NCBI GenBank assembly: GCA_048213135.1 | Contig: PS015245.1 | Location: 22,472 to 86,471, forward strand | Source of the DNA: Reclinomonas americana ATCC 50394 | Lineage: Eukaryota | Length of the DNA stretch: 64,000 bases | Direction of reading: 5' to 3' | Program-made: the position numbers and the translations under genes | Part shown: piece by piece, positions 1,526 to 47,248 of the stretch | Position numbering within the stretch: the stretch's first letter is position 1 | Layout: each line of letters starts with the position of its first letter | The notes under the pieces: generated by a model | Seen by the model: the letters and a program-made list of their open reading frames with translations, nothing else | Database searches by the model: none | What the model was told of the DNA's origin: nothing

Positions 1526-1584
1526 GTGTCCGTTATTTCCTGTCCTCACCCTCCGCGGCCTCTCTTCTCCCATTGTCAGCGAGA

Positions 1585-19318: not shown

Positions 19319-22300
19319 ATGGCCTCTCGTCCTCCTCCTCCACCACGCCCTCACTCAACAACAACAACAACCCCTTCGCTGCCAATGTCTGCCTCTCCTC
19401 CGTGCGACGATGAGAAAGCAGACAAGATGCTCGTCGACAGCAAGCAGCATGTGCCGATGACGATGATGATGATGCATTCCTCCTCTCCATCCATCAACAG
19501 CNNNNNNNNNNNNNNNNNNNNNNNNNNNNNNNNNNNNNNNNNNNNNNNNNNNNNNNNNNNNNNNNNNNNNNNNNNNNNNNNNNNNNNNNNNNNNNNNNNN
19601 NNNNNNNNNNNNNNNNNNNNNNNNNNNNNNNNNNNNNNNNNNNNNNNNNNNNNNNNNNNNNNNNNNNNNNNNNNNNNNNNNNNNNNNNNNNNNNNNNNNN
19701 NNNNNNNNNNNNNNNNNNNNNNNNNNNNNNNNNNNNNNNNNNNNNNNNNNNNNNNNNNNNNNNNNNNNNNNNNNNNNNNNNNNNNNNNNNNNNNNNNNNN
19801 NNNNNNNNNNNNNNNNNNNNNNNNNNNNNNNNNNNNNNNNNNNNNNNNNNNNNNNNNNNNNNNNNNNNNNNNNNNNNNNNNNNNNNNNNNNNNNNNNNNN
19901 NNNNNNNNNNNNNNNNNNNNNNNNNNNNNNNNNNNNNNNNNNNNNNNNNNNNNNNNNNNNNNNNNNNNNNNTTCTTCTTCTTCTTCTTCTTCTTCTTCTT
20001 CTTTCTCCTCATGGATTGTCGTTGCTTCATTCCCCGTTGCAGAACTAGCTGGCATCTTGAAATACAAGAAGAAGAAGAAACACACCGACGAGAGCACAGC
20101 CGCCATTGCCGCTGCGAGAAGTGTCGCGGAGAATCGCACTGACCAGGGTGTGCATCTCTCCCATCCCTCCTGTCACTGTCTTTGATGTCCTCGCGTCACG
20201 TGTCGTCTCACCGTTGTGGTGTATGCACGCAGCTGCTCACGAGGAGCACATGGAACAAACTGGGATGGAGGGCATCGTCGAGGTACACTGATTGTGTGTT
20301 ATCCCAAGATAAGCATGCCTCTCACTGGCCTTCTCTTTCTTTTGATTGATTGCACAGCAACGTGCAAGGAGGCGGCGAGTCGACTCGTCTCTGGTGGATC
20401 ACAGTGAGGACTCGCCTGCACGTGACTCAGTCGAGACATCAGCCCGCAAGCGTTCTCTGGAGGTGAGCTCCGATGATGTCACGCGACTCAACTTGCCTCT
20501 TTCTCTTGCATCGCAGTTGACACCTGATGTTTTCTCTTCGTTCTCCACAGGTGGATGCATCCAGCGATGACGAGCTTGCACCGCCAAAGAAGAAGATGAA
20601 TAAGGTGTGGATTATGCCATTGTCATGGTTCTGCTAATTCATCGATCTGCATTTGGTTCTCTTGCGTCATCGTGGATTCACAGGGTGGCAAGACTCGAGT
20701 TGAGAAAGAGCCAGAAGGGTGGAGCGCCAACGAGAAGCTGTTGCTGAACAAGCTGCTTGTTGAGTGTGCATTCTCTCTGTCATCATTGCAACCCGCATCG
20801 CTCCTCCTTCTCCTCATCTCTTCATGTGTCTCTCGCAGCGGTGCAATCGGAAGAGGATAATGGTGAAGGCATTCGGGCTGATGGCACCCATTGTTCGGCC
20901 ATCCACAGTCATCCACCATCAGAGTGCTATCTTTGAGCTGGCCTGTGACGACTGTGAGATTCCGTTGTCGGAACGGAGTCGCACGTCGTCTGCAGTCAAG
21001 TGTGCATTTGGCAAGAAGCTTGGTAATACTGCCCGTAATTCGCGCATTGGAGCATACAAGTCAGTGGCGGGTGTGCTTCAGAGCGTGGGCAACTACATCG
21101 AGGTGAGCTAGCATATGCACGAGACGGTCGTGGCATCTTGAGCCAACATGCAGATGATTGCAATGTGCAGATGAGCCAACTCAGTGGCGCGGCCCTGGTG
21201 GATGCTGTTGAGAGACCACTGATTGTGGTGGATGAGCGTGGGTATTCGGAGGTCAGCTCTGTTGCATGATCTTCAGTGCCTTTTGTGATCATGTCTATTG
21301 ATGTTCATTCACTCTGTTTGAATGTGACAGGAGTGGTGGGAGTATTTGCGCCCGTCAAGCAAGACTCAGAAAGACCACCTTCGGCCGTTTGTCAAGCAGG
21401 CCGTGGATGCGTTGCGCGAGTGTGATGGTCTCATGGCCGCTCTGCTTCGAGACTGCCACCTCTCCGAGTCCGAGATGTCACGTGCGGTGACGTGGTACCA
21501 ATCGAAAGGTCTGCGATCTCAAGTGGTAGTTGCTGTTGCTTGCATTGGTGTTGATCAGCACCACACAGAATCTGGCGATGTGAAGATGGTGGTGAAGGAG
21601 GAGAAGGAGGTGGAAGAAGAGAAGGATGCTGTCAAGCTTGAAGACGATGACACCAAGGTACGCGGCAATAGTGCATGAGTAAGAGAGGCTTGTAGCGAAT
21701 GTGCGAGTCTCGGTCAAGCGTTAATCTCTTGTGTTCACAGGTGAATGCAAGCAGTGACGATGGCGAAGAATCGAAGCCGAGAAAGGTAGATTATACAATG
21801 TCTGTGTATGGGTGGTGAGGCACGTGCTGATTGTGCCGTGGTGTGCGTATTTGCAGCGCGTCAAGTGCGGTCGCCATGCGTTCGATGCGGAGATGAGCAA
21901 GGACGAGCGAATGGTGTTGGACAGACTGCTTGTTGCGTGTCGTGTGCATGTCCACAGCACCTTACCAAGGCTGAGTGACTTATTCTTCCGTGTACATGCT
22001 TGTCGTAACACTTGTTGCATTGTGTATGTGGACAGCGATGCAACAAGAGGAAGATACTGGTGATTGCATACGGCATCATGGCACCTATTCTGAAGGGAAA
22101 CGCCGTCCTCTATCATCAGCGCGTTCTCGCTGAACTCGCCTGTAAGGAGTGTGGCATCCCTTCATCAGGAGCTGGCTCTCCGTCTTTCGCAGCCATGGAA
22201 TCATTCGGCAAGAGCCTTGGTTTATTCGCCCAACATTCACGCACCAACACACCCAAATCAGTTGCAGGAGTGCTCCAGAGCATGAGTAAGCTCATCGAGG

Positions 22301-26021: not shown

Positions 26022-27230
26022 AGCAAGAAATTCACAGTGGTGGTGATGGAGAAGGTGCTTGATGTGGAGAGCAAGACATTGCTGAGGATGGACTGTGGCA
26101 TACCTGCATCGGTGCGTGCTAAAGAGTGGGAATGAGGGGCAGCCGGACGGATGAGTGAGAGAGGGAGAAAGGTTTCACTGGTCTGGCAACACATGCATGT
26201 TGCTTGTGAGATATTGATGGAGGTTGTCGGGGAAGAAGAAGACAAAAGCAGAATCACGGTGCACCGAGAGGGACACTGCTTGATTGAGAAGTTGCCTTGT
26301 GTTGTGCGGGATGCACTCTGCATGAGAGTCTTGTCTTCATACTGCTGACTGCTGTTTTTGTTGTGGCAGGTGGAGGAGCTAGACGAGTGAAAAATGGTCG
26401 GAATTGGGGGCCATCATGGTATTGTTGGTGCAGCCGCCCCGGGGCATCCATTTGTATTCGTGGATGTTGCTCACTCTCAGCGACAACAAACACGAGAATG
26501 GCTGTCTTGTTGACCATACCCAGCCAGATTGGTAACCAACGACACGTGCTTCTTCTGTGTTCATGGTAGCGGCAGAGCAGCACATCGTTGGTGTATGATG
26601 GCCCACCACCGGCTGCGGGGTGGGAGGAACCCACCGTTAGATTGTTCAGGTGACTCGTGTTCATGTGGATCGATGTGGATCGAGCACAAGGAAGTGCTGC
26701 TTTGTTGGATCTGTGGATACTCCTGCACCTCTTATCGGCACCATCGCAGCGGGCGCGGTTGGAATGCAGACTCGATGACGATCAGGATTGTGGTTTTTCA
26801 GCTGCATCGCAATATGGTGACCTTCTCATTGTGTCTGTCTGAGGCTCTTCCTCGAGGTGATGCTGCCATGATGCAGCTGCCCACGTGCGCTGTTGTACCC
26901 TGTGTGGAGTTGTTGTTCAATATCATCTCAGCACCACCTTCCCCTGATCCATGTTCTCTCCAGAAGAGGTCCGAAAACAAAGAGACATGAATTGCTTGTC
27001 ATGGAGAACAATCGCAGTTGACGATGCACCCAAGATTGCCCTGTTCTCTGACACTCCTCTTCGTCCCCACCACACTCCTCCTCCGCTCTCCACATCACGA
27101 CTTGTCACCTTTTCATCTTGCTGTTCGGATCAACGAATCTTCATTGCCTCTTCTATTCTCTCTCTTATCTTCGTTTCTTGCATTACGCAGTGCGCGTGTG
27201 TGCGAGAAACAACAACCAAGACACACACAG

Positions 27231-27582
27231 ATGGCCTCTCAGCCTCCTCCTCCTCCTCCACGCCCTCACTCAACAACAACAGCAACAACTCCTTCGCTGT
27301 CAATGTCTGCCTCTGCTCCGTGCGACGATGAGCAAACAGACGTGATGCTCATCGACAGCAAGCAGCATGTGACGACGATGATGACGATGCATTCCTCCGC
27401 TCCCTCCATCAACATCAACGATGATGATGATGATGAGAAGAAGAAGAAGAGCGCATCGGGGTCGTCTGGTGTGCCTGCGATGGCGAGGCGACGAGTGCCT
27501 GCCTCCTCCTCTTNNNNNNNNNNNNNNNNNNNNNNNNNNNNNNNNNNNNNNNNNNNNNNNNNNNNNNNNNNNNNNNNNNNNN

Positions 27583-27678
<96 letters not shown>

Positions 27679-27889
27679 TCTTCTTCTCTCTCTCTCCTCC
27701 TCCCTCCTCCTCTCCTTCTTCTTCTTCTTGTTCTTCTTCTTCTCCTCATGGATTGCCGTTGTTTCATTCTCTGTTGCAGAACCAGCTGGCTTCTTGAAAT
27801 ACAAGGAGAAGAAGAAGCACACCGACGAGAGCACAGCCGCCATTGCCGCTGCCCGATGTGACGCGGAGAATCTCGCTGCGCAAGGTGCG

Positions 27890-27920
<31 letters not shown>

Positions 27921-30900
27921 CTGTCTTTGGTGTTCTCGCGTTACGTAATGTCTCACCTGGGCGGTGCATGCACACAGCTGCTCACCAGGAGCGCGTGGAA
28001 CACACGGCGATGGAAGGCATCGTCGAGGTACAGTGACTGTGTGTCATTCCGAGATGAGCGTGTCTCTCAGCAATCTCTCTCTCTCTCTCTCTTGGTATGA
28101 TTGCACAGCAACGTGCGAGGAGGCGGCGAGTCGACTCGTCTCTGGTGGATCACAGTGAAGACTTGCCTGCACGTGACTCAGTTGAGACATCAGCCCGCAA
28201 GCGTTCTCTGGAGGTGAGCTCCAATAAGACACGCGTCTCAACTTGCCTCTCGCTTGTGCATCGCAGTTGACACCTGATGTTGCCTCCATTCTCTGCAGGT
28301 GGATGCATCCGATGATGACGAGCTGGCACCGCCAAAGAAGAAGAAGAAGGTTTGGGTTCTCTGACATTGACATTTTTGTGCTTATTCATCGATCTGCACA
28401 TGGGCTCTTGTGTCAATGCTGCATGTTGTGGGTTCACAGCGTGGCAAGGGTCAAACTGCGAAGAAGCCAGAAGAGTTGAGCGCAGACGAGAAGCTGCTGC
28501 TGAGCAAGCTGCTCGTTGCGTGTGCTTGCCCTCTCTTCATCTAGTCAACCTAGCGCACTCCTCCTTCTCCTCATCTCTTAATGTGTCACTCGCAGCGATG
28601 CAATCGGAAGAGGATTCTGCTGAAGGCATTTGGCCTGATGGCATCGATTGTTCATGAATCCACAGTCATCCACCATCAGAGTGTCCTCTTTGAGCTGGCC
28701 TGTGACGACTGTGGGATGTCGTTGTCGGAGCCGGTTCAAATGTCGTCTGCTGTCAATTGTGCGTTTGGCAAGAGTCTTGGGTTGAGCGTCATGGGTTCAC
28801 GCGCCAAAACGCCAAAATCAGTGGAAGGTGTGCTCCAGCGAGTGAGCAACTACATAGAGGTGAGCAAGCGTGTGCCTGTGAACGACCGTGCCATGTTGAA
28901 CCATCGTGCACATGATTGCAATCTACAGATGAGCCTACTCAGTGGCGCGGCGCTGGTGGATGCTGTGGAGAGACCACTTATAAAAGTGGATGAGCGCGGT
29001 TATTCGGAGGTGAGTTTGTGAAGCATGATTTTCTGCGTGTGTTGCGATCATATCGACTAATCTTCGTTCACTCGGCTTGCTTGTGACAGGAATCGTGGGA
29101 GAGACTTGCACCAAACAGCAAAGCTAAGAAAGACAATCTTCAGCCGTTTGTCAAGCAGGCCATGGATGCGTTGCGCGAGTGCAATGGTCTCATGACTGCT
29201 CTGCTTCGAGACAGTCGCCTCTCTGAGGCCAGGATATCACGCGCCGTCGCTTGGTGCCATGCGAAAGGTCTGCGATCTCAAGTGGCAGTTAGTGTTGCTT
29301 GCATTGGTATTGACCAGCACCACACAGAATCTGGCGATGTGAAGATGGCGGTGAAGGAGGAGAAGGGGGTGGAAGAAGAGAAGGATGCCGTCAAGCTTGA
29401 AGACTATGGCATCAAGGTACGCGGCAAGAGTACATGAGTAACGTAGGCTTTGTGGGACTGTGCGAGTCTTCATCGACTCGGTCAAGCGTTGATGCCTTGT
29501 GTGTCCGCAGGTGGAGGCCGGCAGTGACGATGGAGAAGAATCGAAGCCGAGAAAGGTAGATGATACAATGTCTGTGTATGGTTGGTGAGGCACGTGTTGA
29601 TTGTGCCGTGGTGTGCGTATTTGCAGCGCGTCAAGTGCGGTCGCCATGTGTTCGATGCGGAGATGAGCAAGGACGAGCGAATGGTGTTGGACAGACTGCT
29701 TGTTGCGTGTGCGTGTCCCACGATATCTCAGCAAGACAGATTGATTGCAATCTGCCATGTGCTCGCTTGCTGTCACACCTTATGTATGCGTGTGTATGTG
29801 GACAGCGATGCAACAAGAGGAAGATACTGGTGATGGCATACGGCATCATGGCACCTGTTGTGAAGCCGTTCGCGGTCTCACACCATCTGCGCGTTCTCGT
29901 TGAACTCGCATGCAAGGAGTGTGAGATCCCTTTTTCTGGAGCTGGCTCTCCGTCTACCTCAGTCATGGACTCATTCGGCAAGGCTCTTGGCAACGTCGTC
30001 CAACATGCACGCATCAAGACGACCAAGTCCGCTGAAGGAGTGCTCCAGAGCATGAGCGAGTTCATCGAGGTGAGTATCTGTCTGTTCTGTCCATATCCCA
30101 CATAACTGGAAAGTGATCCAACATCGCTGCATAATGCAACGGTGTAGAAGAGCGAACTGCGCGGCTCCGCTCTGGCGGATGCCATCGAGAGACCACTGAT
30201 TGTGGTGGATGAACGTGGTTATTCTGAGGTGCGCCAACTTTTCACTGTGCGCTTTTTGTACTTCTGCTTTGAGTTGTTGACTTACATGCTTCTTCCACGA
30301 TGTCGGTCGTGCTGTAGGAGTCATGGAAGACGGTGGCGAGAAAAGGGAGGAGCATGGACCGTCTCCTGCCGCTCGTCTCCCAAGCCGCGCAGGCCCTTCG
30401 CGAGTGTCCTGGCTTGCAAATGTCGTTGATTCGAGACGGCTGTCTCTCCGAGGCAGAGATCGCACGGGCCGTCGAGTGGTGCGCCGAAAGAGGTTTGGTG
30501 GCTTAGGGTACGTCCTACCGTGCTTGGGGTCAGAACTGACAAGTGAGATACAGCTCTGCTGGAGGCGAAGGTGCTGAAAAAAGAAGAGATGAAAGAGGAG
30601 GAGGAAGAACAGGAGGATGATTCGAGTGACGAGAGGGAAGAAGATGAGGACGAAGACATGGACGAAGGTAGCGAGAGCAAGGTACGACGTGGCGGTTGTG
30701 CGCACTGTGACAGCATCTCATGATGTGTGTCCGCAGCGACGAGGGAGTGTTTCTGCGTCAATGAGCAAGAACGAGCAACTGTTGCTGGCAAGGCTTCTTG
30801 TTGCGTGTGTTTCCATTTGTGTCCTTCTCTGGCAGTCATCTGGCTGATTGAGTGTTTATCGCATCGCCCATGTGATGCAGTGCTGCAACAAGAGGAAGAT

Positions 30901-33860
30901 ATTGGTGAAGGCCTTCGGCATCATGGCACCGACCGTGATGAGATCCACAGTCCGCCATCATCAGCGTGTTCTTGTTGACTTGGCATGCAAGGAGTGTGGC
31001 GTCCCTCCATCGAAAGCAGGCTGCCTTTCGTCGGCAGTTGTGAGCTCATTTGGCAAGATATTTGTCAGTGTCGTCCATCATGCACGCACCGAGACGCCCA
31101 AGTCTGTTGAGGGAGTACTTCAGATGTTGAGCGACTTTGTCGAGGTGAGCAGCGTCCATATCACTAATCGAGCCACCGCTTAAGTATGTATCGCAATGCA
31201 GAAGAGTGAACTGCGTGGCGCTGCCCTGACGGACGCCATTGAGAGACCTCTGGTTGTGGTGGATGAACGTGGCCATTCTGAGGTGTGGCTGCCCTGTTGT
31301 GTGTACGTTGTATATGTCGTGGATGGTGTTTTCTCACATTCTGTGCTCTGGAATTCGGTTGTCAGGAGTCATCACAACTGCCAGGGATGCCGCACAGCAG
31401 GCTGAGTCCCTTTCTGCCATATGTCACGCAGGCTGTGGATGCCTTCCATAACTGCCCAAGCCTGCTGTCCACACTTCTTCGAGACGGCTGTCTGTCCGAG
31501 GCGGAGATTGCGCGTTCCGTCGAGTGGTGCAGTGCACGAGGTTCGGCTGTGTGACCTGCATGGCTGCACTTTGTGCGCATATGCTCAACAACGACTGAAC
31601 AGCTCTGAGGGAGATGGGGATGGCAAAGAAAGGGGAGAAGCGGGAGGAAGAGCTGGAGGATGAGGACGATGGCAAGGTACGTCGCTCGTTTCCGTTAGAT
31701 GCGAGACAGGTGCGTGTCCTAACTCTGTCGTGATTGCCCTCCACAGCGCCGCAAGAGTGGATCTGCGAAGTTGAGCGTCAACGAGCAACTAATGCTGGCG
31801 AAACTGCTTGTTGCGTGTTTCTGTTAAACTCTCTGCATGTCGCCGACAATGCTGTCACTCCCATCTGCTCACCTTCGCCTTGGAGTAGGGCTGCAACAAG
31901 AAGAGGATGCTGGTGAAAGCATTCGGCCTCATGGCACCCGTGGTGCTGAAATCCACAGTCCTCCATCATCAGCGTGCTCTCTTCCAACTTGCCTGTGACG
32001 AATGCGGAATACCGACGAAGGGACCAGGCAGCCCGTCATCCGCAGTCACGTCTGCTTTTGGCAAGAGTCTTGCCAGGAGTGCCAAAACGGCACGCTGCGC
32101 GACGCCCAAGTCGGTGGAGGGTGTGCTGAAGAGTGTGAGCAACTTTGTGGAGGTGAGTGTGTCGGTGTGCTGCTTCAGTATCCTTCCGATTGTTATGTGT
32201 GTGGTCCCTGACTCGACTTCGACGTGGATGTCACCATCAGAAGAGTGGTCTTCGGGGAGCGGAGCTTGTGAATGCTGTCGAGAGACCACTGATTGTGATT
32301 GACGAGCGTGGCTACTCTGAGGTGCGTGTGAAATTGTGTGTGCTGATGTGCGTCATTGAAAGCTGGCTCACATTGGATGGTAGGAGTTTGCAAAGTCGCA
32401 GAAGCGAGGCGCTTCACATGTTTGTCTGCCATTCACCACACAAGCCAGGCAGGCTCTGCACAACTGTCCGAGCCTGTTGGCCACTCTGCTTCGAGACGGC
32501 TGCCTTTCGCAGGCGGAGATTGCACGTGCCGTCGAGTGGTGCAGTGAAAGAGGTTTGGCTGCCTGACTCTCATTGCTGCACAGTGCATGCATGTGCTGAC
32601 AAGCAAGTGACCAGTCGTCAGGGAGATGGAGATGGTGAAGAAAGAGGAGGAGAGGGAGGGTGAGCAGGTAGATGGTGACGGCAGCGACATGTACAATGGG
32701 GACGATGACGCGAAGGGAAAGAAGGTACGCCCGACGCTGCATTCTTCGTGATGCGAGGGGTACATCTTAATACTGCGTGGCTTGTGTTTCACAGCGCAGA
32801 AAGATTGATTCTGCGAATTCAAGCATCAGCGAGCAATTGATGCTGGCGAGATTGCTTGTTGCGTGTTCTTTGTATCGCCGGCATTGCTGTCATAAACTCC
32901 TCACTTTCATCCACCCGTCTATCTCTCGAGAGCAGAGGTGCAACAAGAAGAGGATACTGGTGAAGGCTTTCGGCTTCATGGCATCTGTGGTGATGAGATC
33001 CACAGTCTTGCATCATCAGCGCCTTCTCTTCCAACTTGCCTGTGACGAATGCGGCATGCCGTCGGAGGGACCGGGCTGCCCTTCAGCCGCAGTCATGTCT
33101 GCATTTGGCAAGAGTCTTGCCAAGAGTGCCACAGGGACACGCAGCAAGACGCTGAAGTCAGTGGAGGGTGTGCTCGAGAGCGTGAGCAACTTTGTGGAGG
33201 TGAGTGTCGGTGTGGTGTTTCAAAATAGGCGTGGTACCTGACTCGACTTCGACGTGCATGTCACCATCAGAAGAGTGGTCTTCAGCGAGCTGAATTGGTG
33301 GATGCTGTCGACAGACCGCTGATTGTGATCGATGAATGTGGGCACTCAGAGGCACGTGGACAACGGTTTTGTACGCTGGTGCTCCGATGATGTTGACTCT
33401 CTTTGTTGTCTCGCGGGTGACAGGAATCAGACAAGTTGCGGAAGAACAACCATCCAAGTGTTCTTCTGCCATTCGTCACGCAGGCCATGCTTGTGCTCCG
33501 CACCTGCCCTGGCTTGCTGGCCACGCTGCTTCGAAATGGTTGCCTTTCGAAGGCGGAGATTGAGCGTGCTGGCCATGGTGAATGAGCCCCTGCTGTTATT
33601 GCATGATAGCTTGTCAGCATCAGCACTGACAAGTGATGCAGTGCTGGCCATGGGTGACGAGAAGCCGGTGAAGTTGGAGGTGGTGAAGAAAGGGGAGGAG
33701 GAGGAGGAGGAGGAGGAGGAGGAGGAGGAGGAGGAGGAGGAGGAGGAGGAGGAGGAGGAGGAGGAGGAGGAGGAGGAGGAGGAGGAGGAGGAGGAGGAGG
33801 AGGAGGAGGAGGAGGAGGAGGAGGAGGAGAGNNNNNNNNNNNNNNNNNNNNNNNNNNNNN
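27231..33860 (+). CDS. Uncharacterised 5-module repeat protein, paralog 2
   Basis: Same exon structure. Core exons at 28596, 29806, 30881, 31889 and 32936; NLS-like APPKKKKK (28299-28349). A C-terminal poly-Glu runs into a gap that probably contains the stop. Confidence 0.8.
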
Positions 33861-35024
33861 CAGAGTGCGGGGATGGAGAAGGTGCTTGATGTGGAGAGCA
33901 AGACACTGCTGTTGATGGACTGTGGCATGCCTGCATTGGTGAGTTGCGAGGGGGTGGGAGTGAGTGACTGTGGGAGGGATGAGTGAGAGAGAGAGAAAGG
34001 TTTCACTTGGCAGGCAACACATGCATGTTGTTTGTGAGATATTGATGGAGCTTGTCGTGGAAGAAGAAGACAAAAGCAGAATCACAGTGCACCAAGAGGG
34101 ACACCGCTTGATTGAGAAGTTGCCTTGTGTTGTGCGGGATGCACTCTGCATGAGAGTCTTGTCTTCATACTGCTGACTGCTGTTTTTGTTGTGGCAGGTG
34201 GAGGAGCAAGACGAATGAAAAATGGTTGGAAATCGGGGCCATCATGGTATTGTGGGTGCAGCCGCCCCCGGGCATCCATTGGCATTCGTGTGCGTTGCTC
34301 ACTCTCAGCAACAACAAACACGAGAATGGCTGTCTTGTTGACCAAGTCCAGCCAGATTGGTAACCAACGACACGTGCTTCTTCTGTGTTCATGGCAGCGG
34401 CAGAGCAGCACATCGTTGGTGCATGATGGCCCACCAGCAGCTGCGGGGACGGGAGTGTTAGATTGTGCAGGTGACTCGTGTTCTTGGTGATTCGATGTGG
34501 ATGAGCAGAAGGAAGTGCTGCTTTGTGGATACTCCTGCACCTGCACTTGACACCATCTCAACGGGTGCGCTTGGAATGCAGTTTCGATGACGAGCAGGAT
34601 TGTGGTGCTCAGCTGCATCGCCGAGATCGAGACCTTCTCAATGTGTCTGTCTGCGGCTCTTCCTCGGTGTCCATCGAGGTGATGCTGCCCTGATGCAGCT
34701 GCTCACGGGCGCTGTTGTACCCTGTGTGGAGTTGTCGTCCATCATCATCTCAGCACCAGCTTCCCCTGATCCATGTTCTCTCCATGAGAGGTCCGAAACA
34801 AAGAGACATGCATGTGTTGCTCGTGGAGAACAATCGCAGTTGACGATGCACCCAAGATTGCCCAGTTCCTCCTTCCCCTTTTCCCCTAACACTCATCCTC
34901 TTTCGCCCCTCACATCACGACTTGTCACCTTATCATCTTGCTGTTCGGATCAACGAATCTTCATTGCTCTCACTCTTCGTTTCTTGCATCACGCAGTGCG
35001 AAACAACAACAGAGACACACACAA

Positions 35025-35369
35025 ATGGCCTCTCAACCTCCTCCTCTTCCTCCTCCTCCACGCCCTCACTCAACAACAACAACAACTCCTTCTCTGCCAA
35101 TGTCTGCCTCTTCTCCGTGCGACGACGAGAAAGCAGACATGATGCTCATCGACAGCAAGCAGCATGTGACGACGATGATGACGATGATGCATTCCTCCTC
35201 TTCCTCCATCAACAGCAACGATGATGATGAGATGAAGAAGAAGAGCGCATTGGGGTCGTCTGCTCATCGTGGTGTGCCTGCGATGGCGAGGCGACGAGTG
35301 CCTGCCTCCTCTTCTTCTTCTTCCTCTTCTTCCACCGNNNNNNNNNNNNNNNNNNNNGGTGGCGTCGTC

Positions 35370-35409
<40 letters not shown>

Positions 35410-38400
35410 TTTCCCTCTTGCTGTCTTTGATGTCCTCGCGTCACGTAATGTCTCACCTGAGCGGTGCATACACACAGCTGCTCACCAGGAGCACATGGAA
35501 CACACAGCGATGGAAGGCATCGTCGAGGTACCCTGATTGTGTGCCATCCCAAGATAAGCATGCCTCTCACTGGCCTTCTCTTTCTGGAAAGATCGCACAG
35601 CAACGTGCGAGGGGACAGCGAGTCGACTCGTCTCCGATGGATCACAGTGAGGACTTGCGTGCACGTGACTCAGATAAGACATCGTCCCGCAAGCGCATTC
35701 TGGAGGTGAGCTCCGACGAGACACGCGTCTCAACTTGCCTCTCGTTCGTGCATCGCAGTTGACACCTGATGTTTTCTCTTCGTTCTCCACAGGTGGATGC
35801 ATCCAGCGAGGACGAGCTTGCGCCCCCACAGAAGAAGAAGAAGGTGTGGATATTTTGTCGCTGACATCGTTGTGCTTTTCATCAATCTGCATGTGGGCTC
35901 TTGTGTCAATCATGCATGCTGTGGATTCACAGCGCGGCAAGACTCGAGCTGCGAAAGAGCCAGTGGAGTTGAGCGCAGAAGAGAAGCTGCTGCTGAACAA
36001 GCTGCTTGTTGCGTGTTTATTCTCTCTGTCGTCGTTGCAACCTGGCTCACTCCTCCTTCTCCTCATCTCTCTATGTGTCTCTCGCAGCGGTGCAATCGGA
36101 AGAGGATCCTGGTGAAGGCATTCGGGTTAATGGCACCCTTTGTTCAGAAATCCACAGTCATTCACCATCAGAATGCTATCTTTGAGCTGGCCTGTGACGA
36201 ATGCGGAATTCCGTTGTCGGAGCGGAGTCGCACGTCGTCTGCTGTCAAGTGTGCATTTGGCAAGAAGCTTGGTTATACTGCCAATGCTTCACGCCACTCA
36301 ATGCCCAAGTCAGTTGAGGGCGTGCTCCGGCGAGTGAGTAACTACATCGAGGTGAGGAAGCATGTGTGCCTGTGAATGACCGTGGCGTGTGAACCGACAT
36401 GCAAATGATTGCAATCCTGCAGATGAGCCAACTCAGTGTCGCGGCTCTGGTGGATGCTGTGGGGAGTCCACTCATTGTGGTGGATGAGCGTGGGTATTCG
36501 AAAGTGTGTTTGTGATGCATGATTTTCTGCTTGTGTTGTGATCATGTCGACTAGTCTCCGTTCACTCGGCTTGCTTGTGACAGGAATCGTGGGAGAAACT
36601 GGCACCACTGCACAAGACCAAGAAAGACAAGCTTCAGTCGTTTGTCAAGCAGGCCATGGATGCGTTGCGCGAGTGCAATGGTCTCATGACTGCTCTGCTT
36701 CGAGACAGTCGCCTCTCTGAGGCCGTGATATCACGCGCCGTCGCATGGTGCCATGCGAAAGGTCTGCGACCTCAAGTGGCAGTTAGTGTTGCACTGGTGT
36801 TGATCAGCACCACGCAGAATCTGGCGATGTGAAGATGATGGTGAAGGAGGAGAAGGAGGTGGAAGAAGAAAATGATGCCGTCAAGCTTGAACACGATGAC
36901 ACCAAGGTACGCAGCAATAGTGCATGAGTAAGGGAGGCTTTGTGGGACTGTGCGTGTCTTCATCGACTCGGTCAAGCGTTGATGCCTTGTGTGTCCGCAG
37001 GTGGAGACCGGCAGTGACAGTGACGAAGAATCGAAGCCGAGGAAGGTAAGACGATGCTAATGTCTGTGTGGTTGGTGCGGCAGATATGTTGATTGTGTTG
37101 TTGCATGGGTGTGCGCATTTGCAGCGGGTCAAGAGTGGTCGCCATGCGTTCGATGCGGAGATGAGCAAGGACGAACGAATGGTGTTGGACAGACTGCTTG
37201 TTGCGTGTCATGTGCATGTCCACAGCACCTTACCAAGGCTGAGTGATTGATTCTTCCGTGTGCTTGCCTTTCATAACACCTGCTTCGTGCGTGTGTGTAT
37301 GATCAGCGGTGCAACAAGAAAAAGATACTGGTGATGGCATTCGGCATCATGGCGCCTGTTGTGATGCGATCTGCAGTCTGGCATCATCAGCGAGTTCTTT
37401 TTGAACTCGCCTGCAAGGAGTGTGGCATTCCTTCATCAGGAGCTGGTAGCCCGTCGCCTGCAGCCATGTACGCATTCAGCAAGAGCCTTGGTTTATTCGT
37501 CCAACATTCACGCACCGAAACGCCCAAGTCTGTTGAGGGAGTACTTCAGAGCATGAGCAAGTTCATCGAGGTGAGTATCTGTCTGTTCTGTCCATCTCAC
37601 ACATACCTGGAAGTAAGCCAACAACGATGCGTGTGCAACTGCACAGAAGAGTGCACTGCGCGGTGCTGCTCTGGCAGATGCCATTAAGAGACCACTGATT
37701 GTGGTGGATGAACGTGGCCATTCTGAGGTGCGCCAACTTTTCCCTGTGTGCTTCGTGTATTTTTGCTTTTTGAGTTGTTGACTTACGTGCTTCTTCCACG
37801 ATGTCGGTCGTGCTGTAGGAGTCGTGGAAGATGATGGAGAGGAAACGGAAGAGCAACGACCGTCTCCTGCCGCTCGTCTCCCAAGCCGCGCAGGCGCTAC
37901 GGGAGTGTCCTGGCTTGCAAACGTCGTTGATTCGAGACGGCTGTCTCTCGGAGGCGGAGATCGCACTGGCCGTCGAGTGGTGCGCCGAAAGAGGTTTGGT
38001 GGCATCGGATGCGTTCTACTGTGCATTCTCAGGACTGACAAGTGAGATGCAGCTCTGCTGGAGGCGAAGGTGATGAAAAAAGAAGAGATGAAGGAGGAGG
38101 AGGAAGAACAGGAGGATGATTCGAGTGACGAGAGGGAAGAAGATGAGGACGAGGACATGGGCGATGGTGAAAGGAGCAAGGTACGACCATGTTTGGTGGG
38201 GCGGCTGTGCACACTGTGACAGCATCTCATGATGTGTGTCCACAGCGACGAGAGAGTGGTTCTGCAATGATGAGCAAGGACGAACAGCTATTGCTAGCAA
38301 GGCTTCTTGTTGCGTGTGTTTGCATTTATGTCCTTCTGTGGCAGTCGTCTAGCTGATTGTGTTTTCATCGCACCACCCATGTGATTCATGGGAGAGCAGT

Positions 38401-41290
38401 GCTGCAACAAAGAGAAGATATTGGTGAATGCGTTCGGCATCATGGCACCGACCGTGATGAGATCCACAGTCCGCCATCATCAGCGTGTTCTTCTTGACTT
38501 GGCATGCAAGGAGTGTGGCGTCCCTCCATCGAAAGCAGGCTGCCTTTCGGCGGCAGTTGTGAGCTCTTTCGGCAAGAGTCTTGCCAAGCTCGCCCAACAC
38601 GCACGTACCTCAACGCCCAAGTCTGTTGAGGGAGTCCTCCAGATGATGAGCGACTTTATCGAGGTGAGTATCGTCCATATTACTTGACTGAATCAATCAA
38701 CGGCCAGCTCTAAAGTATGTACCGCAATGCAGAAGAGTGAATTGCATGGCGCTACTCTGGCAGATGCCATTGAGAGACCTGTGGTTGTGGTGGATGAACG
38801 CGGCTATTCTGAGGTATGCCAGCCTTGCGCTCTGTGTACGTTGTATGTCGTGAATGGCGTTTTTCTCACATTCTGTGCTCTTGAATTCGGTTGTCAGGAG
38901 TCGTCGCGCTTGCCGAGGGCTTTGCACAACAAGCGGAATCCGCTTCTGCCATATGTCACACAGTCCGTGGATGCCTTCCACGACTGCCCAAGCCTGCTGG
39001 CCACTCTGCTCCGAGACGGATGTCTGTCCGAGTCGGAGATTGCGCGCGCCGCTGAGTGGTGCAGTGCACGAGGTTCGGCTGTGAGGATTCTTTGCTGCGC
39101 TTTGTGCGCATGTGCTCACCAACGACTGAACAGCTCGGAGGGAGATGGAGATGGTGAAGAAAGAGGAGAAGCGGGAGGGAGAGCAGAAGGATGAGGACGA
39201 TGGCAAGGTACGCCCGTCGCTCGTTTCCGGTAGATGCGAGACATGTGCGTGTCCTAACCCTGTGTGGATTGCCCTCCACAGCGCCGCAAGAGTGGTCCTG
39301 CGAAGTTGAGCATCAACGAACAATTGATGCTGGCGAAACTGCTTGTTGCGTGTTGCTGCTATCTCTGTGCATGTTTCCAGCACTGCTGTCACTCCCATCT
39401 GCTCACCACATCTTGAAGCAGGGCTGCAATAAGAAGAGGATGGTGGTGAAGGCATTTGGCCTCATGGCACCCATTGTGCTCAGATCCACAGTCCTCTGTC
39501 ATCAGCGTGCTCTCCTCCAACTTGCCTGTGACGAATACGGAATACCGTCGGAGGGACTAGGCTGCCCTTCAGCCGCAGTCATGTCTGCATTTGGCAAGAG
39601 TCTTGCCAAGAGTGCCAAAACGGCACGCACCACAACGCCCAAGTCAGTAGAGGGCGTGCTCGAGAACATGAGCAGCTTCATAGAGGTGAGTGTCGGTGTG
39701 TTGTTTCAGTGTCCTTCCGATCGTCACGTGCGTGGCACCTGACTCGACTTCGACGTGGATGTCGCCATCAGAGGAGTGGTCTTCGGGGAGCTGAGCTGGT
39801 GGATGTTGTCGAGAGACCGATGATTGTGATTGACGAGCGTGGCTACTCTGAGGTGCGTGTGAAATTGTGTGTGCTGATGTGCGTCATTGACAGATGGCTC
39901 ACATTGCTGTGGCTCGGATGGTAGGAATCAACAGCAAAATCGCAGAAGGGAGGCGCTCCTAATTTTCTTTTGCCGTTCGTTACCCAGGCCAGGCAGGCAC
40001 TCCGCAGCTGTCCAGACCTACTGGCCACTCTGCTGCGGGACGGCTGCCTTTCGCAGGCGGAGATTGCACGCGCCGTCGAGTGGTGCAGTGAAAGAGGTCT
40101 GGCTGCTTGGCTTCGTGATTGGATAATGCATGTACTCACAAGCAAGTGAACAGTCGTGAGGGAATTGGATGTGGTGAAGAAAGAGAAGGAGAGGGAGGGT
40201 GAGCAGGAAGAAGATGATGATGCCGGCGACAATGAGGTTGATGACGCGAGCTCTCTCTTCAGTGAGATGCGAGAAGTACGTCTTAATACTGCGTGGCTTG
40301 TGTTTCACAGCGCCGCAAGATTGATCCTGCAAAGTTGAACATCAACGAGCAATTGATGCTGGCGAGATTGCTTGTTGCGTGTTTCTCTGCATGCCGCCAC
40401 TGATGCTGTCATAACCTGCTCACTTTCATCCACCCATCCATCTCTCGAGAGCAGAGGTGCAACAAGAAGAGGATATCGGTGAAGGCTTTTGGCTTCATGG
40501 CACCTGTGGCCATGGCATCCACAGTCTTGCATCATCAGCGCGTTCTCTTCCAACTTGCCTGTGACGAATGCGAAATACCGACGAAGGGACCGGGCTGCCC
40601 TTCAGCCGCAATCTTGTCTGCATTTGGAAAGAGTCTTGCCAATAGTGCCCGAGATACACGCAGTACGACGCCCAAGTCAGTGGAGGGTGTTCTCGAGAAC
40701 GTGAGCAACTTCATCGAGGTGAGCGTCGGTGTGGTGTTTCTATGTCACATCTGCGGCAACTGACCTACCTTCCATAATGTGCATGTGGGTGGAATCATTA
40801 GAAGAGCGGACTTCGCGGAGCTGAACTGGTGGATGTGGTCGAGAGACCACTGATTGTCATTGACGAGCGTGGCTACTCTGAGGCATGTGGACCGTCGTGG
40901 TTTTGTGCTGTGGAGCTTCGGTGATTGGTGACTCAGCTTTCTCGTTTCGTGTGACAGGAGTCAGCAACGCTGACGCACAAAAATGGTACTCCGAATGTTC
41001 TTCTGCCATTAGTCACGCAGGCCATGCATGTGCTCCGCACCTGTCCTGGCCTGCTGACCACTCTGCTTCGAGACGGTTGTCTTTCGAAGGCGGATATATC
41101 ACGTGCCGGTGAGTTTTCGGAATGCAACAATCTGAGAGCAACTGGTGTTGTTGCTCGTCGTGCCTGCATCAGTACTGACAAGCATGATACAGTGCTGGGT
41201 GACGAGAAACCGGTGAAGGTGGAGCTGATAAAGAAAGAGGAGGAGGAGGAGGAGGAGGATGAACAGGAAGACGAGGAGGAGGACATGTAG
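35025..41290 (+). CDS. Uncharacterised 5-module repeat protein, paralog 3
   Basis: Same exon structure. Core exons at 36088, 37307, 38400, 39422 and 40455; APPQKKKK (35793-35843). Stop TAG at 41288-41290. Confidence 0.8.
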
Positions 41291-41358
41291 AGCCAGAAAT
41301 TCAGAGTGGTGGTGATGGAGAAGGAGCTTGATGTGGAGAGGAAGACATTGCTGTGGAT

Positions 41359-42266
41359 GCGCCTCCTTTTTCAGGGACACTGCCTTCCTCTTCTCCTCTT
41401 CCTCCTGCGGTGATTATGGTGCCTCCGCCGCGGCCGACGGGCTTTCACCGCGTAAAGTTGGAGGCGTGTGTTCAATATCGATTTCTTGCATGCTGCAGTT
41501 TGCTCTCATTGTGCCATTACTATCACCAATGATCTTCTACACTTTGTTTTCTCAATGCCGTTCTCGCTGCGTTGCACACCAGTGTAACACACCTTCAAAA
41601 CACGACAAAACGAACGAAATTGCATGAGTGTCACGTGTCACCAATCACTTTACCAGACACCAACAACAATGAGCGCGACCACTCCCTCTGCGCCTCCTTC
41701 TTCAGGGACACTGCCTTCCTCTTCTCCTCTTCCTCCTGCGGTGATTATGGTGCCTCCGCCGCGGCCGACGGGCTTTCACCGCGTAAAGTTGGAGGCGTGC
41801 AATATCGCTGCGATGTCTTGCACGCAGCACGTTATCATTTGCCATTACTATCACCAATGATCTTCTACACTAGCTTCCACAATGCCATTCTCGCTGCACA
41901 CCAGATACACCTTCAAAACACGACAAAGCAAACGAAATTGCATGAGGAGTGTCACGTGTCACCAATCATCACTTTACCAGACACCAACAACAATGAGCGC
42001 GACCACTCCCTCTGCGCCTCCTTCTTCAGGGACACTGCCTTCCTCTTCTCCTCTTCCTCCTCTTCCTTCGTCTGCGGTGATTATGGTGCCTCCGCCGCGG
42101 CCGACGGGCTTTCACCGCGTAAAGTTAGAGGCGTGTGTTCAATTGCAATATCGATGTCTTGCATGCAGCAGTTTGCTCTCATTGTGCCATTACTATCACC
42201 AATGATCTTCTACACTTTGCTTTTCACAATGCCGTTATCGCTGCGTTGCACACCAGTGTAATACAA
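41359..42266. repeat. ~325 bp tandem repeat (3 copies, first one 5'-truncated) abutting the right end of the gene array
   Basis: gcgcctcctt.ttcagggacactgccttcctcttctcc...ggtgattatggtgcctccgccgcggccgacgggctttcaccgcgtaaagtt recurs at about 41359, 41690 and 42014, and continues into a gap. Confidence 0.9.
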
Positions 42267-43058
42267 NNNNNNNNNNNNNNNNNNNNNNNNNNNNNNNNNN
42301 NNNNNNNNNNNNNNNNNNNNNNNNNNNNNNNNNNNNNNNNNNNNNNNNNNNNNNNNNNNNNNNNNNNNNNNNNNNNNNNNNNNNNNNNNNNNNNNNNNNN
42401 NNNNNNNNNNNNNNNNNNNNNNNNNNNNNNNNNNNNNNNNNNNNNNNNNNNNNNNNNNNNNNNNNNNNNNNNNNNNNNNNNNNNNNNNNNNNNNNNNNNN
42501 NNAGTCTCTGTAACTCCTTCATCATGATGCATTTCGAGTTGGGCAAATGCTTTTATTTTCTAACTTGAGATTTCGGCAAGGGCGAATACGACGGTGGCGC
42601 AAGACGCGCACGCAAAATTAACGAAACACAGAATGATGATGATGGATGGTTGGGGGCAAAGGGGTGTGCGGGTGGACCAGAAGAGGAGCAACCAACAAAA
42701 CACAGGGGCGTGGCGCGCACACACAGTTAAACACGCGATAATGAAACACAACAACAACAAGCAACACAAAACAGGGGGGAGGAAGGTGAACAACAACAGA
42801 CACGCGACGGCCACACACTCTCCTCCTGGTCTCCACCATTACCCGCTCACCCACACCGCCACCGCCGCCTCACACACACACACACTTCTAGGGACACGAT
42901 ACAAAAGGAAAAATCACAGAACTACGACAGAGTGGTCACTGACACACAATATACAAGACACAGGAGGGGGAGTTTTTTTTGATGCACATTAGACGACGGT
43001 GAGGGATACAAACAACAACACAACAACAAACAGCAACAATAGCGGCGCCCGTCCCACC

Positions 43059-46000
43059 TCAGTACGGATGCTCATATGTGCCTGGCGGCGGGTAGGCGGC
43101 TGGCGCATACTGGCCATACACCGGCTGCGGCACATACATGCCAGGAGCTGTCACCGACAAAAACACCGGAGTGACGAGTGAGCAACTACTTCTGGGTTGC
43201 GCACATAAAGGTAAAGCCAGCGACGCAAAACTCACCAACATGCTGTGGCGGCATGGAGGACGGTGGCGGCGGAGGCACAACTTGCGGTGACCCGAGATGA
43301 GGGTGGTATGGATTCGGCGCGTGCGACAGAGTCGGCATGGCGTAGGCCGAGTAACCGGGGTGCGGAGACACGGGCGACGCAGCGTAGCCAGGCGACGGCA
43401 TCGAGTGCTGACTGAGTACATGATGATGCGCCGGGGCGTTGCCGTAGTGCGCGCTCTGCGGTGCCGGCGACAGTTGCTGCTGCTGCTGCTGCTGTTGTTG
43501 TTGTTGCTGCTGTTGCTGTTGCGAGGCCGACATGTGTCGATGGGAGGGCGCGCTGTCGGAGATGCCCGACTGGTGATTGCCGTGGTGTCGCTCTCGTCTG
43601 GTTCGGTGATGAGCACGCACACACACACACACACGTACAGACCACATAAGTACACACACATACACACCGATCCGAATGGCCACCGCCACTGCCACCACTG
43701 TGCTGCTGCCGGTGGTAGCCACCACCGCGTCCACCACCACCGCCACCACCACCACCACCTCCGCCATGGTGTCGCTCGCCACCTCCACCATGGTGACGAT
43801 CACCGCCACTGCCTCCTCCGCCACCACCACCACCACCGCCGCCGCCGACGGCAGATGCCTTGCGGTTGAGCTTGTTCTCAATCTTCTTGCCGTAGGGCGT
43901 GTTGCGCACGAGGTGCAGCAGTGGTCGGATCTTTTCTTGCAGCAACATGAACTGCTGGTTGTCGGCCACCGCAATGCCGGTCTGAATAACATAGTTGCCG
44001 AAGGAGTCCTGCAGCAGTCGCGGCAGTGCGTCGTCGCCGACCACTTCACCAAACACCAGATCGCGCACATTGTTGCCGCCTTGACGCAGGCACTGCGCAA
44101 GCGAAAGAAAAAAAAGACAATGCGAGTCAGGCAGCAGCAACAAAACACGCGCGCACACACACACGCACACACCTTTTCCACTACATTCGAGCTGAACTTG
44201 TTGATGCACAGATCCGCAATGTGCCCAGCGAACTTGGAGACAACTTGATACGTGATGGTGTCACTCTCCAAATCCAGCACGTACTGCACCACGTAGTTGC
44301 CAAACGGGTCTTGCACGAGGGTTAGCGAGTGAGCGGCGATTTCGTGCACCAGCTCCACCTGTCGATGCATCCATCACACGCGGTGTGAGCTAGACAATGA
44401 ACATGACCACCACATGCCGACCTCTCACACGCAACTCGCTGCGCCTCCGACGCAAAATCAATGCATCTCTGCATCACACAGCAGCCGTGACGGTGCGTGG
44501 CCACATCGACGCACCGATCCACCACCGCGTCGTAGATGAACTGCTTCTCGAGCGAGCTCAGGCGATGCAGGCAGCGCTGAATCACGTGATTGCCGTTGAG
44601 ATCCTTGATGAGGTCCACCACGTGGTCGCGCAGCGCCTCCACAATCAGGTGCACCTGGAAAGGCGTGCTCAGGCACTCAATGAGCTTCTGAACGGCGCGC
44701 GTGCCGTGCATGTCTGAGGGAGGGAGAAAGTGAGGAAATGCACATCACAATTGGACAGTGTGTGTGTGTGTGACGGCAACGCAACTCAGCGAAATCTCGT
44801 ACAAGTGGTTCTTCACGCACTCGACAATCTGCGAACGCTGCTCATCCGAGCAAAACTCCACCAACTTCTGGCACAGGTAGTTGCCAAACGGATCCATCAT
44901 CAGCTCCACCAGATCGCCTCCAATTTCGTTCAAGATGAGCAGCACGTTGACTTCGGCGTTCTCCTCAATCTTCTTTTGCAGGAAGCGGCAACCGTACTGG
45001 TCCTTGCACAGGTCGTAGATCTGACCCTGGATTTCGCTCATGTCCTGCACACGCGATAGTGCCTCGGCCAGCTCACTCGAACTCGCCGAGCGGCGCATCC
45101 CCACACCGCCAATCGGCAGCGGTGACGAGTCCGCACTGTCCGACACCGACGGCTGTCGACGAAGGCCGGGCGAGTGATGCTGGTGCGGTGGTGGCGGGCC
45201 AGCTGGCGTGTGGCCCATGCTCATTGCTGCACCGTGTCCCATGTGCCGCTGCGGTGCCGGCGAGACCACGTGCGGGTGTTGCGGTGACGGCATCATGGGT
45301 GCAGGTGACTGCGCCAACTGCTGCGGCTGCGCAAGTGGCGGCTGTTGGTGTTGCTGCTGCTGTTGTTGCTGTTGCTGCGGTTGAGGAGACGCTTGCTGGT
45401 AGTGCTGCGGCTGATTGGCGTAATGCATCGCGTGTGGCCCGGCAGGTGACTGGAACGACTGGTATGCGGGGCCGCCAGAAAAGTCTGCACCCAACACTTG
45501 TGTGTGAGAAAAACACATGAAGATGTGTGAGGATGCTCAGCATGAGCGCGCACCTTGCGGAACCGGTGACGTCGTGTACTGCCCGCTGTACGCCGAGAGC
45601 GAGTGCTGGGGAGAGGCGGCGTGCTGCTGCGCGTGGTGTGCCGGAAGGTGGTATGGCGACGCGGCTTGCGGTGACGGTTGAGGCGACGGCCAACCGCCAT
45701 TCGGCACCGGCTGTAGCGTGAGGTTGCCCATCTGCTGATGCATCTGTTGTTGCTGTTGCTGGTGGTGTTGTTGCTGCTGATAGCTCGATGGTGTCTGCGG
45801 CTGTGACATGGGCGGAGGAGTCGCTGGCGGAGTAATGACAGGCGTGCGTCCCGCCGAGTGACGCCCACCACGTGCCGAGCTCGGCTCACTGGAGCTCATC
45901 CGCATGCCCATGTGCGTGGTGGCCTCGTCGAGTGACAACGACGACAGGGCACCGACCAACTGTGCACCTCCACCACCGCCGCCACCACCGCCACCGCCAC

Positions 46001-46688
46001 TGCTGTCTCTTCCCCAGGACTGGCGAGAGGGGCTCGCACCACGCGAACTGCGCGGAACGACAGGATCACCCGACGCTCCTGCACCACGCAGCGTAAAGTC
46101 GTCCTCCACGCCCTTTAGAATGTCGAGAAGCGGCTCACCCTCATTCCACGTGTACTGCGGGCGCGGGGCGGAATGAGAAATCACACACGCACACACACAC
46201 AAACGTGCTTCAACGCAGTAGTAAACCTCGAGAGGTGGCGGCAAATGCACGCGATCCGAGTGCGATTCGAAGAACGCCAAGTACTTGGGGTCGCTACGGA
46301 TGTCCCAGGCGGCCACGGCACTGCCCATCCCTCCGCCGCCGCCGCCACCACCACCACCACCACCACCGCCGCCACCAGCACTACCAAAGCCGAAATGGTG
46401 TCCATGATGCGGCTGCGGAGCATGATGGTATCCACCACCAGTGCTGCTGGCGCGAGTCGGCGACGAGTGCGCCACATGGTGCGCGGCATTGGGCGGTGTC
46501 GGTGGATGCTGCAGATCATACGGCGACGAGTGCATGTGATGCGCATAGACGGCAGTTGGCGAGGAGAAGCCGCCACCTTGCAGGAACTGCTGCTGTTGTT
46601 GCTGCTGTTGTTGCTGACGATGCAACTGCTGCAGGTGATGCTGCTGCTGTTGATGATGATGATGCAACTGATGCTGATCGTCACTCAT
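43059..46688 (-). CDS. Pumilio/PUF RNA-binding protein, Puf4-type, with Q/H/G-rich low-complexity arms
   Basis: Eight PUF repeats after splicing: DQYGCRFLQK, DPFGNYLCQK, NMHGTRAVQK, DLNGNHVIQR, HRHGCCVMQR, DPFGNYVVQY, NKFSSNVVEK, DSFGNYVIQT, followed by TPYGKKI. Confidence 0.95.
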
Positions 46689-47248
46689 CGACGGTGGTGA
46701 ATGAATGGCAAAGCTCAGTGGTAGGTCTGTGCGACATGTGCACACACACAGAGAGTGAGAAATGAACACACGCGCGCGCGTTTGGGTCAGTCAACCGCCA
46801 CAAGCACGACGCAAAAGTGTGTGTGTGTAAGAGTGAGAGAGAGAGTGAGAGTGGGAGGAGAGAGAGAGAGAGAGTGAGCGCGTCATGTTCAGTTCCAGGC
46901 ACTCACCTCCAGGTGCCGAAGTCGGCCGCGGGATCTCGGCTGGATCGACCAGAGCAATGGACGACACATACGACGGTGACTCCCGCTCACCCATTCACAA
47001 CACACACACACAAGAGAGCAACAAAGAAAAGAGAGAGAGAAAATAACACCCGCGCGCGCGCACCCGCCTCTCCCAACCCGTCTGTGCGCGAGAGAGAGAC
47101 ACGACACGAGAGAAGCACACAGGCAGACACAGTGAGAGCGCGCGTGTGAGTGTGCTTGTTGAGTGATGGAGTGGGACAGTGGTCGATTGTCCGACGCGCG
47201 AGCAGTGCGGCTCTCCTATCACAGACCCACACAAACGACCAGCCGACC

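Follow-up and report, generated by a model that had tools for sequence, protein, structure and literature searches.

Three head-to-tail paralogous genes, rich in introns, lie on the forward strand of a Reclinomonas americana ATCC 50394 contig (GenBank accession no. PS015245.1, assembly GCA_048213135.1) and encode proteins with five copies each of a ~190-residue module. Judging from its sequence, the module is a lineage-restricted family without detectable relatives, and it is under purifying selection except in one 15-codon patch. The genes occupy positions 19319 to 41290 of the window analyzed here (64,000 nucleotides [nt], contig positions 22,472 to 86,471); all coordinates below are window positions.

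A preliminary description of this DNA, made from the letters alone, had proposed a 3 x 5 module array. A repeat search together with exon mapping confirmed these 15 modules, and the outer coordinates of the description were exact (gene 1 ATG at 19319, gene 3 stop ending at 41290). The 15 core copies were spaced 1008 to 1219 nt apart inside genes and 3152 to 3419 nt apart across gene borders. Start codons lay at 19319, 27231 and 35025, which places the genes 7.9 and 7.8 kb apart from ATG to ATG. TAG stop codons closed gene 1 (26019-26021) and gene 3 (41288-41290). When profiles of the core exon and of the fourth exon were run against all six-frame open reading frames (ORFs) of the 64-kb window, each recovered exactly 15 copies, with no further copies elsewhere in it.

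Each module consisted of four phase-0 exons, which we call A (21 to 25 amino acids [aa]), B (88 aa), C (27 aa) and D (49 to 59 aa), and the protein encoded per gene was ~1300 aa. The short exon, 264-nt core exon, 81-nt exon and fourth exon of the preliminary description were each found in 15 of 15 modules. Core exon B was exactly 264 nt long and open in frame in all 15 copies, always with AG before it and GT after it. Exon C was exactly 81 nt in every copy, followed by a GT donor in 12 and a GC donor in 3. Exon A always had a CAG acceptor and a GTTG(C/A)G donor; it was 75 nt long in modules 1 and 2 and 63 nt in modules 3 to 5. It opens every module with an LxxLL-type helix (LNKLL, LDRLL, LARLL, LAKLL) and ends in ..LL, except in module 5 of gene 1 (g1m5; other modules are named likewise), where it ends in ..LH. 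An L(L/I)R(D/N) motif marked exon D in all 15 modules. Three exon B residues were invariant (C2, H27 and C36), C39 was present in 14 of 15 copies, and exon D had one invariant Cys. A structural zinc-binding domain would have four conserved Cys/His ligands arranged around one metal. Per-copy scans of exon B with Pfam and NCBIfam returned no known zinc-finger family.

A single splice model yielded open frames across all three genes, in all 15 modules as well as in the linker exons. In this model, the phase-1 end of exon D is followed by a 56- to 62-nt intron, an acidic linker exon and exon A of the next module. The donor of the linker exon was GTACG in 11 of 12 linkers, and the linker after module 1 alone had an extra 45-nt exon. 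Introns between exons A and D (n = 45) were 57 to 107 nt long, with an AG acceptor in all cases and a GT (42) or GC (3) donor; their length was divisible by 3 in 16 cases. Two stretches that read through in some copies are, from their sequence, probably better taken as introns. One is an in-frame intron of 56 to 60 nt after exon D of module 1, which contains a 4-nt deletion in gene 3 relative to genes 1 and 2 (the gene 3 form is 56 nt). The other, 64 to 84 nt long and also in frame, precedes the last exon and results in the same acidic C-terminal exon in all three genes; once it is recognized, an apparent stop in gene 2 disappears. Given these two introns, the genes are indeed intact looking, as had been stated.

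Two side observations concern splicing. The GC-donor introns follow the 81-nt exon and start at 24568 (g1m4), 33352 (g2m5) and 40883 (g3m5); since they lie in different genes and at different positions, GC donors arose or spread independently of the triplication of the gene. Stop-free in-frame introns also produce long ORFs that fuse exons (23951-24457, 28554-29021, 32771-33241 and 38688-39194), which ORF-based gene callers would be expected to mis-annotate.

The exons of the array are coding sequence under constraint. Across exons B and C, the mean pairwise difference per site was 0.241 at codon position 1, 0.192 at position 2 and 0.400 at position 3. The ratio of nonsynonymous to synonymous substitution rates (dN/dS) was 0.26 to 0.70 in all 15 same-position paralog pairs (dS, 0.20 to 0.53), and none of the 30 B and C exons had an indel, in contrast to the drifting intron lengths. 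One segment departed from this pattern. With the 15 same-position pairs pooled, the ratio of nonsynonymous to synonymous differences per site (pN/pS) was 1.23 in codons 58 to 72 of exon B (0.76 to 1.90 per module position), in contrast to 0.34 in the rest of exons B and C (0.26 to 0.46 per module position), an odds ratio of 3.5. In the AlphaFold2 model of exon B, this patch takes up the C-terminal half of the longest predicted helix plus the loop that follows it. It also includes KKLGNTARNSR (core codons 59 to 69 of g1m1), the stretch that had been compared to a recognition helix. Its location inside the fastest-evolving patch would fit a specificity surface but is no proof of one. The hypervariable patch is a new result beyond the preliminary description, as are the duplication order and the complete exon maps.

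In a maximum-likelihood tree of exons B, C and D, modules clustered by position for all five positions (support, 91 to 100). The five-module gene therefore predates the triplication. The five positions had diverged to ~50% identity. The order of the genes in the tree varied between module positions, and one intron was identical between genes 1 and 3; together these observations indicate near-simultaneous triplication or gene conversion.

No relative of the module came out of the sequence searches. Pfam scans of seven pieces (exon A, three exon B copies, exon C and two exon D copies) gave nothing above cut-off, and scans of every copy of exons B and D (15 each) gave only subthreshold matches to helix-turn-helix (HTH) families and domains of unknown function (DUFs); these scans were read to an E value of 10, with HMMER filters dropping most matches above ~0.1. 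The only named families touched in the first Pfam scan were GeBP-like_C and DUF2059. NCBIfam returned two unrelated single matches for the 15 exon B copies (E = 0.13 to 0.15). Among the PHROGs, phrog_21250, a family without known function, was matched by 3 of 15 copies (best E = 5.4e-4), and eight other families were matched by one or two copies each. Against PDB sequences, a single core gave one row (E = 3.3), the core profile gave none, and the exon D profile gave two unrelated rows (E = 0.26 and 0.76). When the 15 core exons were searched as a profile against 1.84 billion representative proteins, no match came up at an E value of ≤0.001, and the exon D profile found none at ≤0.1 among 8000 longer candidates (108 to 2000 aa). 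Metagenome contigs gave 106 pattern matches to the core, none of which was confirmed, and Rfam had no match in the whole window. The array thus corresponds to the unrecognized modular family that had been proposed: no curated family and no database protein matched any of its exons. The E-value thresholds were strict, and remote relatives below them remain possible. A full-text literature search brought up nothing relevant in its listing or in the opening parts of the abstracts.

Nine exon D copies gave 102 pattern matches in metagenome contigs and a single locus (L001), whose match was spurious: it contains a stop and runs antisense to a 399-aa ORF. The GeBP-like_C match (PF22757) to exon D plus linker of g1m1 (E = 0.012; residues 63 to 105; 15.9 bits against a cut-off of 27) is most probably compositional, since it lies in the K/E-rich linker. 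It was obtained for one of the seven pieces and did not recur in the per-member scans. Exons B and D are not internal duplicates of each other (hhalign probability, 0.8%).

Structure prediction gave a mostly helical core. AlphaFold2 with the 15-row alignment modeled exon B as five to six helices (mean predicted local distance difference test [pLDDT] score, 72), and Foldseek found nothing at an E value of ≤0.001 for this core model in PDB and BFVD. In the ESM Atlas, the ORF comprising exon A, intron and exon B reached a best score of 0.80 (recognition 1032). Several subthreshold hints pointed to HTH domains: of the 15 copies of each exon, Pfam matched HTH_24 to two of exon D (best E = 0.021), AsnC-type HTH also to two of exon D (best E = 0.093) and HTH_5 to one of exon B (E = 0.15), and there were ESM Atlas clusters in which 15 to 22% of members carry HTH_32 or HTH_21 (score, 0.83). 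These signals are weak, all being below the tools' own noise marks and short of the curated cut-offs.

The more specific likenesses in the preliminary description found no support. It had compared the opening of the module to the first helix of Myb/SANT or MADF domains and the basic end of the core to BEN/MADF domains. No Myb/SANT-type Pfam match was obtained at E values up to 10 in the pieces or in any copy of exon B or D (15 of each), and no MADF or BEN match in the scanned pieces at the same level. Myb/SANT domains are three-helix repeats with regularly spaced conserved aromatic (Trp) residues. Neither the short exon nor the core exon has a conserved Trp; the W of WSANEK occurs in g1m1 only, and other modules have M, L or E there. 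The fold matches listed, which do not cover every family, included no BEN domain.

Charge was distributed unevenly along the proteins. The N terminus is rich in Pro, Ser and Thr and charge clustered, beginning with MAS(R/Q)PPPPP and continuing Ser/Thr rich, and N-terminal coding blocks conserved among the genes carry the basic clusters KYKKKKK, RARRRR and PPKKK. The last of these, described as a nuclear localization signal of the simian virus 40 type before module 1, is present in genes 1 and 2, and gene 3 has PPQKKKK instead. Exon B is basic in all 15 copies (net charge, +2 to +9; isoelectric point [pI], 8.3 to 10.0). An acidic linker follows each module (net charge, -7 to -18 in the four acidic segments of gene 1), and the protein ends in a polyacidic tail. 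In gene 2 this tail (33690-33831) is a poly-Glu run of >40 residues that ends in an N run, with only 7 to 9 consecutive Glu residues at the same position in genes 1 and 3. For gene 1, we assembled an approximate protein from exon 2 onward (~1255 aa; pI 5.8; 187 K+R and 209 D+E residues), with one wrong exon-5 coordinate, one stop and no coverage of the PPKKK cluster. It contained five K(K/R)x(K/R) clusters (mean of 1.9 in shuffled sequences), located at the N terminus (KYKKKKK) and at linker-module junctions. Basic residues at the junctions include KPRK|RVK, RRK|RRES, DDK|RRKS and GKK|LRK.

Taken together, these features lead us to favor, tentatively, the possibility that the proteins are nuclear multivalent binders of a polyanionic partner (chromatin or nucleic acid), in which the modules are basic and the linkers acidic. 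One binding surface would be provided by each of the basic, mostly helical modules. Part of that surface would be the fast-evolving end of the long exon B helix, where specificity would be tuned, and the acidic linkers and tail could compete with or regulate binding, like the acidic tails of other multidomain nuclear proteins. Nuclear import would rely on the K/R clusters found at the N terminus and wherever a linker meets a module. Nucleic acid binding is a guess drawn from the basic charge of exon B and the HTH hints. UBF-type HMG-box arrays combine tandem basic DNA-binding domains with an acidic tail. The array proteins likewise have tandem basic helical domains, acidic linkers, a polyacidic C-terminal tail and basic clusters that could serve nuclear import. 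In contrast to the HMG box (~75 aa), however, the module is ~190 aa long, and neither an HMG-box Pfam match at E values up to 10 in the scanned pieces nor a fold match was found. The likeness is an analogy of architecture only.

Several observations weigh against this nuclear binder. As assembled, the whole protein is acidic. The enrichment of K(K/R)x(K/R) clusters is modest (39 of 1000 shuffles reach five), which leaves the nuclear location claimed earlier plausible but weak. The psi-K-x-E motifs of SUMO type pointed out in the linkers (VKEE, VKLE, VKIE and VKVE) do exist but without enrichment (seven in the gene 1 protein against a shuffle mean of 3.4; 57 of 1000 shuffles reach seven). The last helix of exon D is acidic and hydrophobic rather than basic. 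Compared with HTH domains (winged HTH_24 and AsnC-type; homeodomain-like HTH_32 and HTH_21), exon D has an acidic candidate third helix, and there is no wing-like segment between this helix and the acidic linker. AlphaFold2 gave a pLDDT of 56.5 for exon B joined to exon C through the open in-frame intron, with exon C below 50, a model too poor to use. Finally, the boundaries of the patch were chosen after the scan, the 15 pairs are not independent, and a pN/pS near 1 may reflect relaxed constraint instead of diversifying selection.

A more ambitious version is improbable in our view: the module could be a new fold of sequence-specific nucleic acid reader, with codons 58 to 72 as the specificity determinant and 15 readers with different targets. 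KRAB zinc-finger gene clusters are tandem, fast-evolving DNA readers of the array type. The present genes resemble them as tandem paralogs of repeated modules with a short patch of pN/pS ~1.2 on a constrained scaffold, but they differ in that the modules are helical and ~190 aa long instead of 28-aa fingers, only three genes lie in the window and DNA binding is putative. If this version were true, the array would be a protist counterpart of fast-evolving zinc-finger clusters, aimed, for example, at mobile DNA and made from a domain without known relatives.

Other functions have to be considered for the same architecture. The module could act outside the nucleus, for instance as a five-fold repeated domain of an enzyme-like, lipid-binding or cytoskeletal kind, which we consider somewhat unlikely. 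Alternatively, the proteins could be scaffolds for protein-protein contacts or acidic nuclear proteins resembling histone chaperones, whose acidic parts bind basic proteins and whose modules serve as spacers or docking units. The charge of the linkers and tail, the long poly-Glu run of gene 2, the low pI of the (approximate) whole protein and the helix that opens every module all suit this idea, LxxLL-type motifs being protein-docking motifs. Selection is nevertheless strongest on the modules (invariant exon lengths and low dN/dS) and not on the linkers, which vary in length and sequence between module positions, and no chaperone family was among the Pfam matches. We regard a scaffold or chaperone as unlikely.

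The tandem units are nearly equal in size and a basic cluster occurs at every linker-module junction, as would be expected of a polyprotein precursor whose acidic spacers are cut at di- or tribasic sites to release five ~190-aa units per gene. This is very improbable given the age of the five positions, which have not been homogenized, and the lack of any hydrophobic or signal-peptide-like stretch visible by eye in the printed N terminus (no predictor was used). We give still less weight to a silent array of decaying, unexpressed copies or an assembly oddity. N runs do break each gene and exon 2 was not found in gene 3, but an open frame runs through the 15 modules and the linker exons under one splice model, dN/dS is below 1 in every pair, and the B and C exons have kept their lengths despite drifting introns.

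Coordinates of the array are given in Table 1. The window is part of a draft scaffold with 18 N runs of 20 to 632 nt, because of which the gene models are incomplete at exon 1 (all three genes), at exon 2 (gene 3) and at the 3' end (gene 2). One run (19502-19971) breaks exon 1/intron 1 of gene 1, and another (27514-27582) falls in exon 1/intron 1 of gene 2. No counterpart of the KYKKKKK exon (exon 2) was found in gene 3, with an N run (35338-35357) at the expected place. The last exon of gene 2 starts at 33642 and enters the poly-Glu tract, which is broken by an N run (33832-33860).

Table 1. Positions of the genes, exons and hypervariable patch of the array (A to D, module exons)
Feature	Position	Strand	Exons or remarks
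Gene 1	19319..26021	+	~31 exons; low-complexity N-terminal region, five modules, acidic tail
Gene 1 N-terminal coding blocks	20042-20149, 20232-20282, 20358-20462, 20551-20604	+	Approximate
g1 module 1	20684..21508	+	A 20684-20758, B 20839-21102, C 21171-21251, D 21331-21508
g1 module 2	21857..22725	+	A 21857-21931, B 22036-22299, C 22379-22459, D 22551-22725
g1 module 3	22974..23787	+	A 22974-23036, B 23117-23380, C 23449-23529, D 23613-23787
g1 module 4	23999..24802	+	A 23999-24061, B 24137-24400, C 24487-24567 (GC donor), D 24634-24802
g1 module 5	25033..25830	+	A 25033-25095, B 25177-25440, C 25530-25610, D 25683-25830; intron 25831-25914; last exon 25915-26021
g1 acidic linker exons	21569-21657 + 21741-21785 (linker 1, span 21569..21785); 22787-22908, 23846-23922, 24860-24963	+	
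Gene 2	27231..33889	+	Architecture as gene 1; 3' end uncertain
Gene 2 N-terminal blocks	27779-27886, 27977-28027, 28109-28213, 28299-28349	+	
g2 module 1	28440..29267	+	A 28440-28514, B 28596-28859, C 28929-29009, D 29090-29267
g2 module 2	29627..30492	+	A 29627-29701, B 29806-30069, C 30148-30228, D 30318-30492
g2 module 3	30737..31540	+	A 30737-30799, B 30881-31144, C 31202-31282, D 31366-31540
g2 module 4	31747..32552	+	A 31747-31809, B 31889-32152, C 32241-32321, D 32384-32552
g2 module 5	32795..33577	+	A 32795-32857, B 32936-33199, C 33271-33351 (GC donor), D 33424-33577; intron 33578-33641
g2 acidic linker exons	29328-29416, 29511-29555, 30554-30681, 31603-31676, 32615-32724	+	
Gene 3	35025..41290	+	Architecture as gene 1; exon 2 not seen
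Gene 3 N-terminal blocks	35477-35527, 35601-35705, 35793-35843	+	
g3 module 1	35933..36761	+	A 35933-36007, B 36088-36351, C 36423-36503, D 36584-36761
g3 module 2	37125..37993	+	A 37125-37199, B 37307-37570, C 37647-37727, D 37819-37993
g3 module 3	38246..39072	+	A 38246-38308, B 38400-38663, C 38733-38813, D 38898-39072
g3 module 4	39282..40096	+	A 39282-39344, B 39422-39685, C 39772-39852, D 39925-40096
g3 module 5	40311..41108	+	A 40311-40373, B 40455-40718, C 40802-40882 (GC donor), D 40958-41108; intron 41109-41192; last exon 41193-41290
g3 acidic linker exons	36818-36906, 37001-37045, 38053-38180, 39134-39207, 40154-40236	+	
Hypervariable patch	B start+171 to +215; g1m1 = 21010-21054	+	

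Other features were noted around the array. Directly 3' of gene 3, a ~331- to 336-nt unit is repeated in ~3 copies (41313-42265, forward strand) up to an N run (42267-42502); Tandem Repeats Finder at a score of 100 reported no tandem array in 41000-43000, though the repeat search shows the unit. Genes 1 and 2 lack this unit on their 3' side; their flanks there (26117-26416 and 33945-34244) are 91% alike. On the reverse strand at 43186-46790 lies a gene of the Pumilio family (PUM-HD) with tracts of poly-Gln and poly-Gly, and the best database matches to one of its exons reach only 77% identity (Vannella, fungi and Capsaspora among them). ORF fragments at 16341-17773 (forward strand), split by introns and N runs, resemble a short-chain dehydrogenase (NNAG and YxxxK-type motifs). 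The flanking ORFs also contain many CA/GA microsatellites and poly-amino-acid tracts. On L001, an activated-sludge contig, the 399-aa ORF (356-1555, reverse strand) has a K-x-D-G motif and resembles proteins of the nucleotidyl-transferase or RNA-ligase type; it is unrelated to the array.

Protist genomes commonly contain lineage-restricted repeat proteins, and the array, with its clean, unusual gene structure and unclassified domain, is better described as a well-documented orphan than as a discovery. Should the module prove to be a real, expressed domain, it would represent a ~190-aa family with no detectable relative among the 1.84 billion representative proteins searched. It would then offer a compact case for the origin of domains and repeat arrays, possibly with a new binding fold, caught at a stage that is informative in that the internal repeat is five-fold, the gene triplication recent and the exon lengths strict, with one fast patch on a constrained scaffold.

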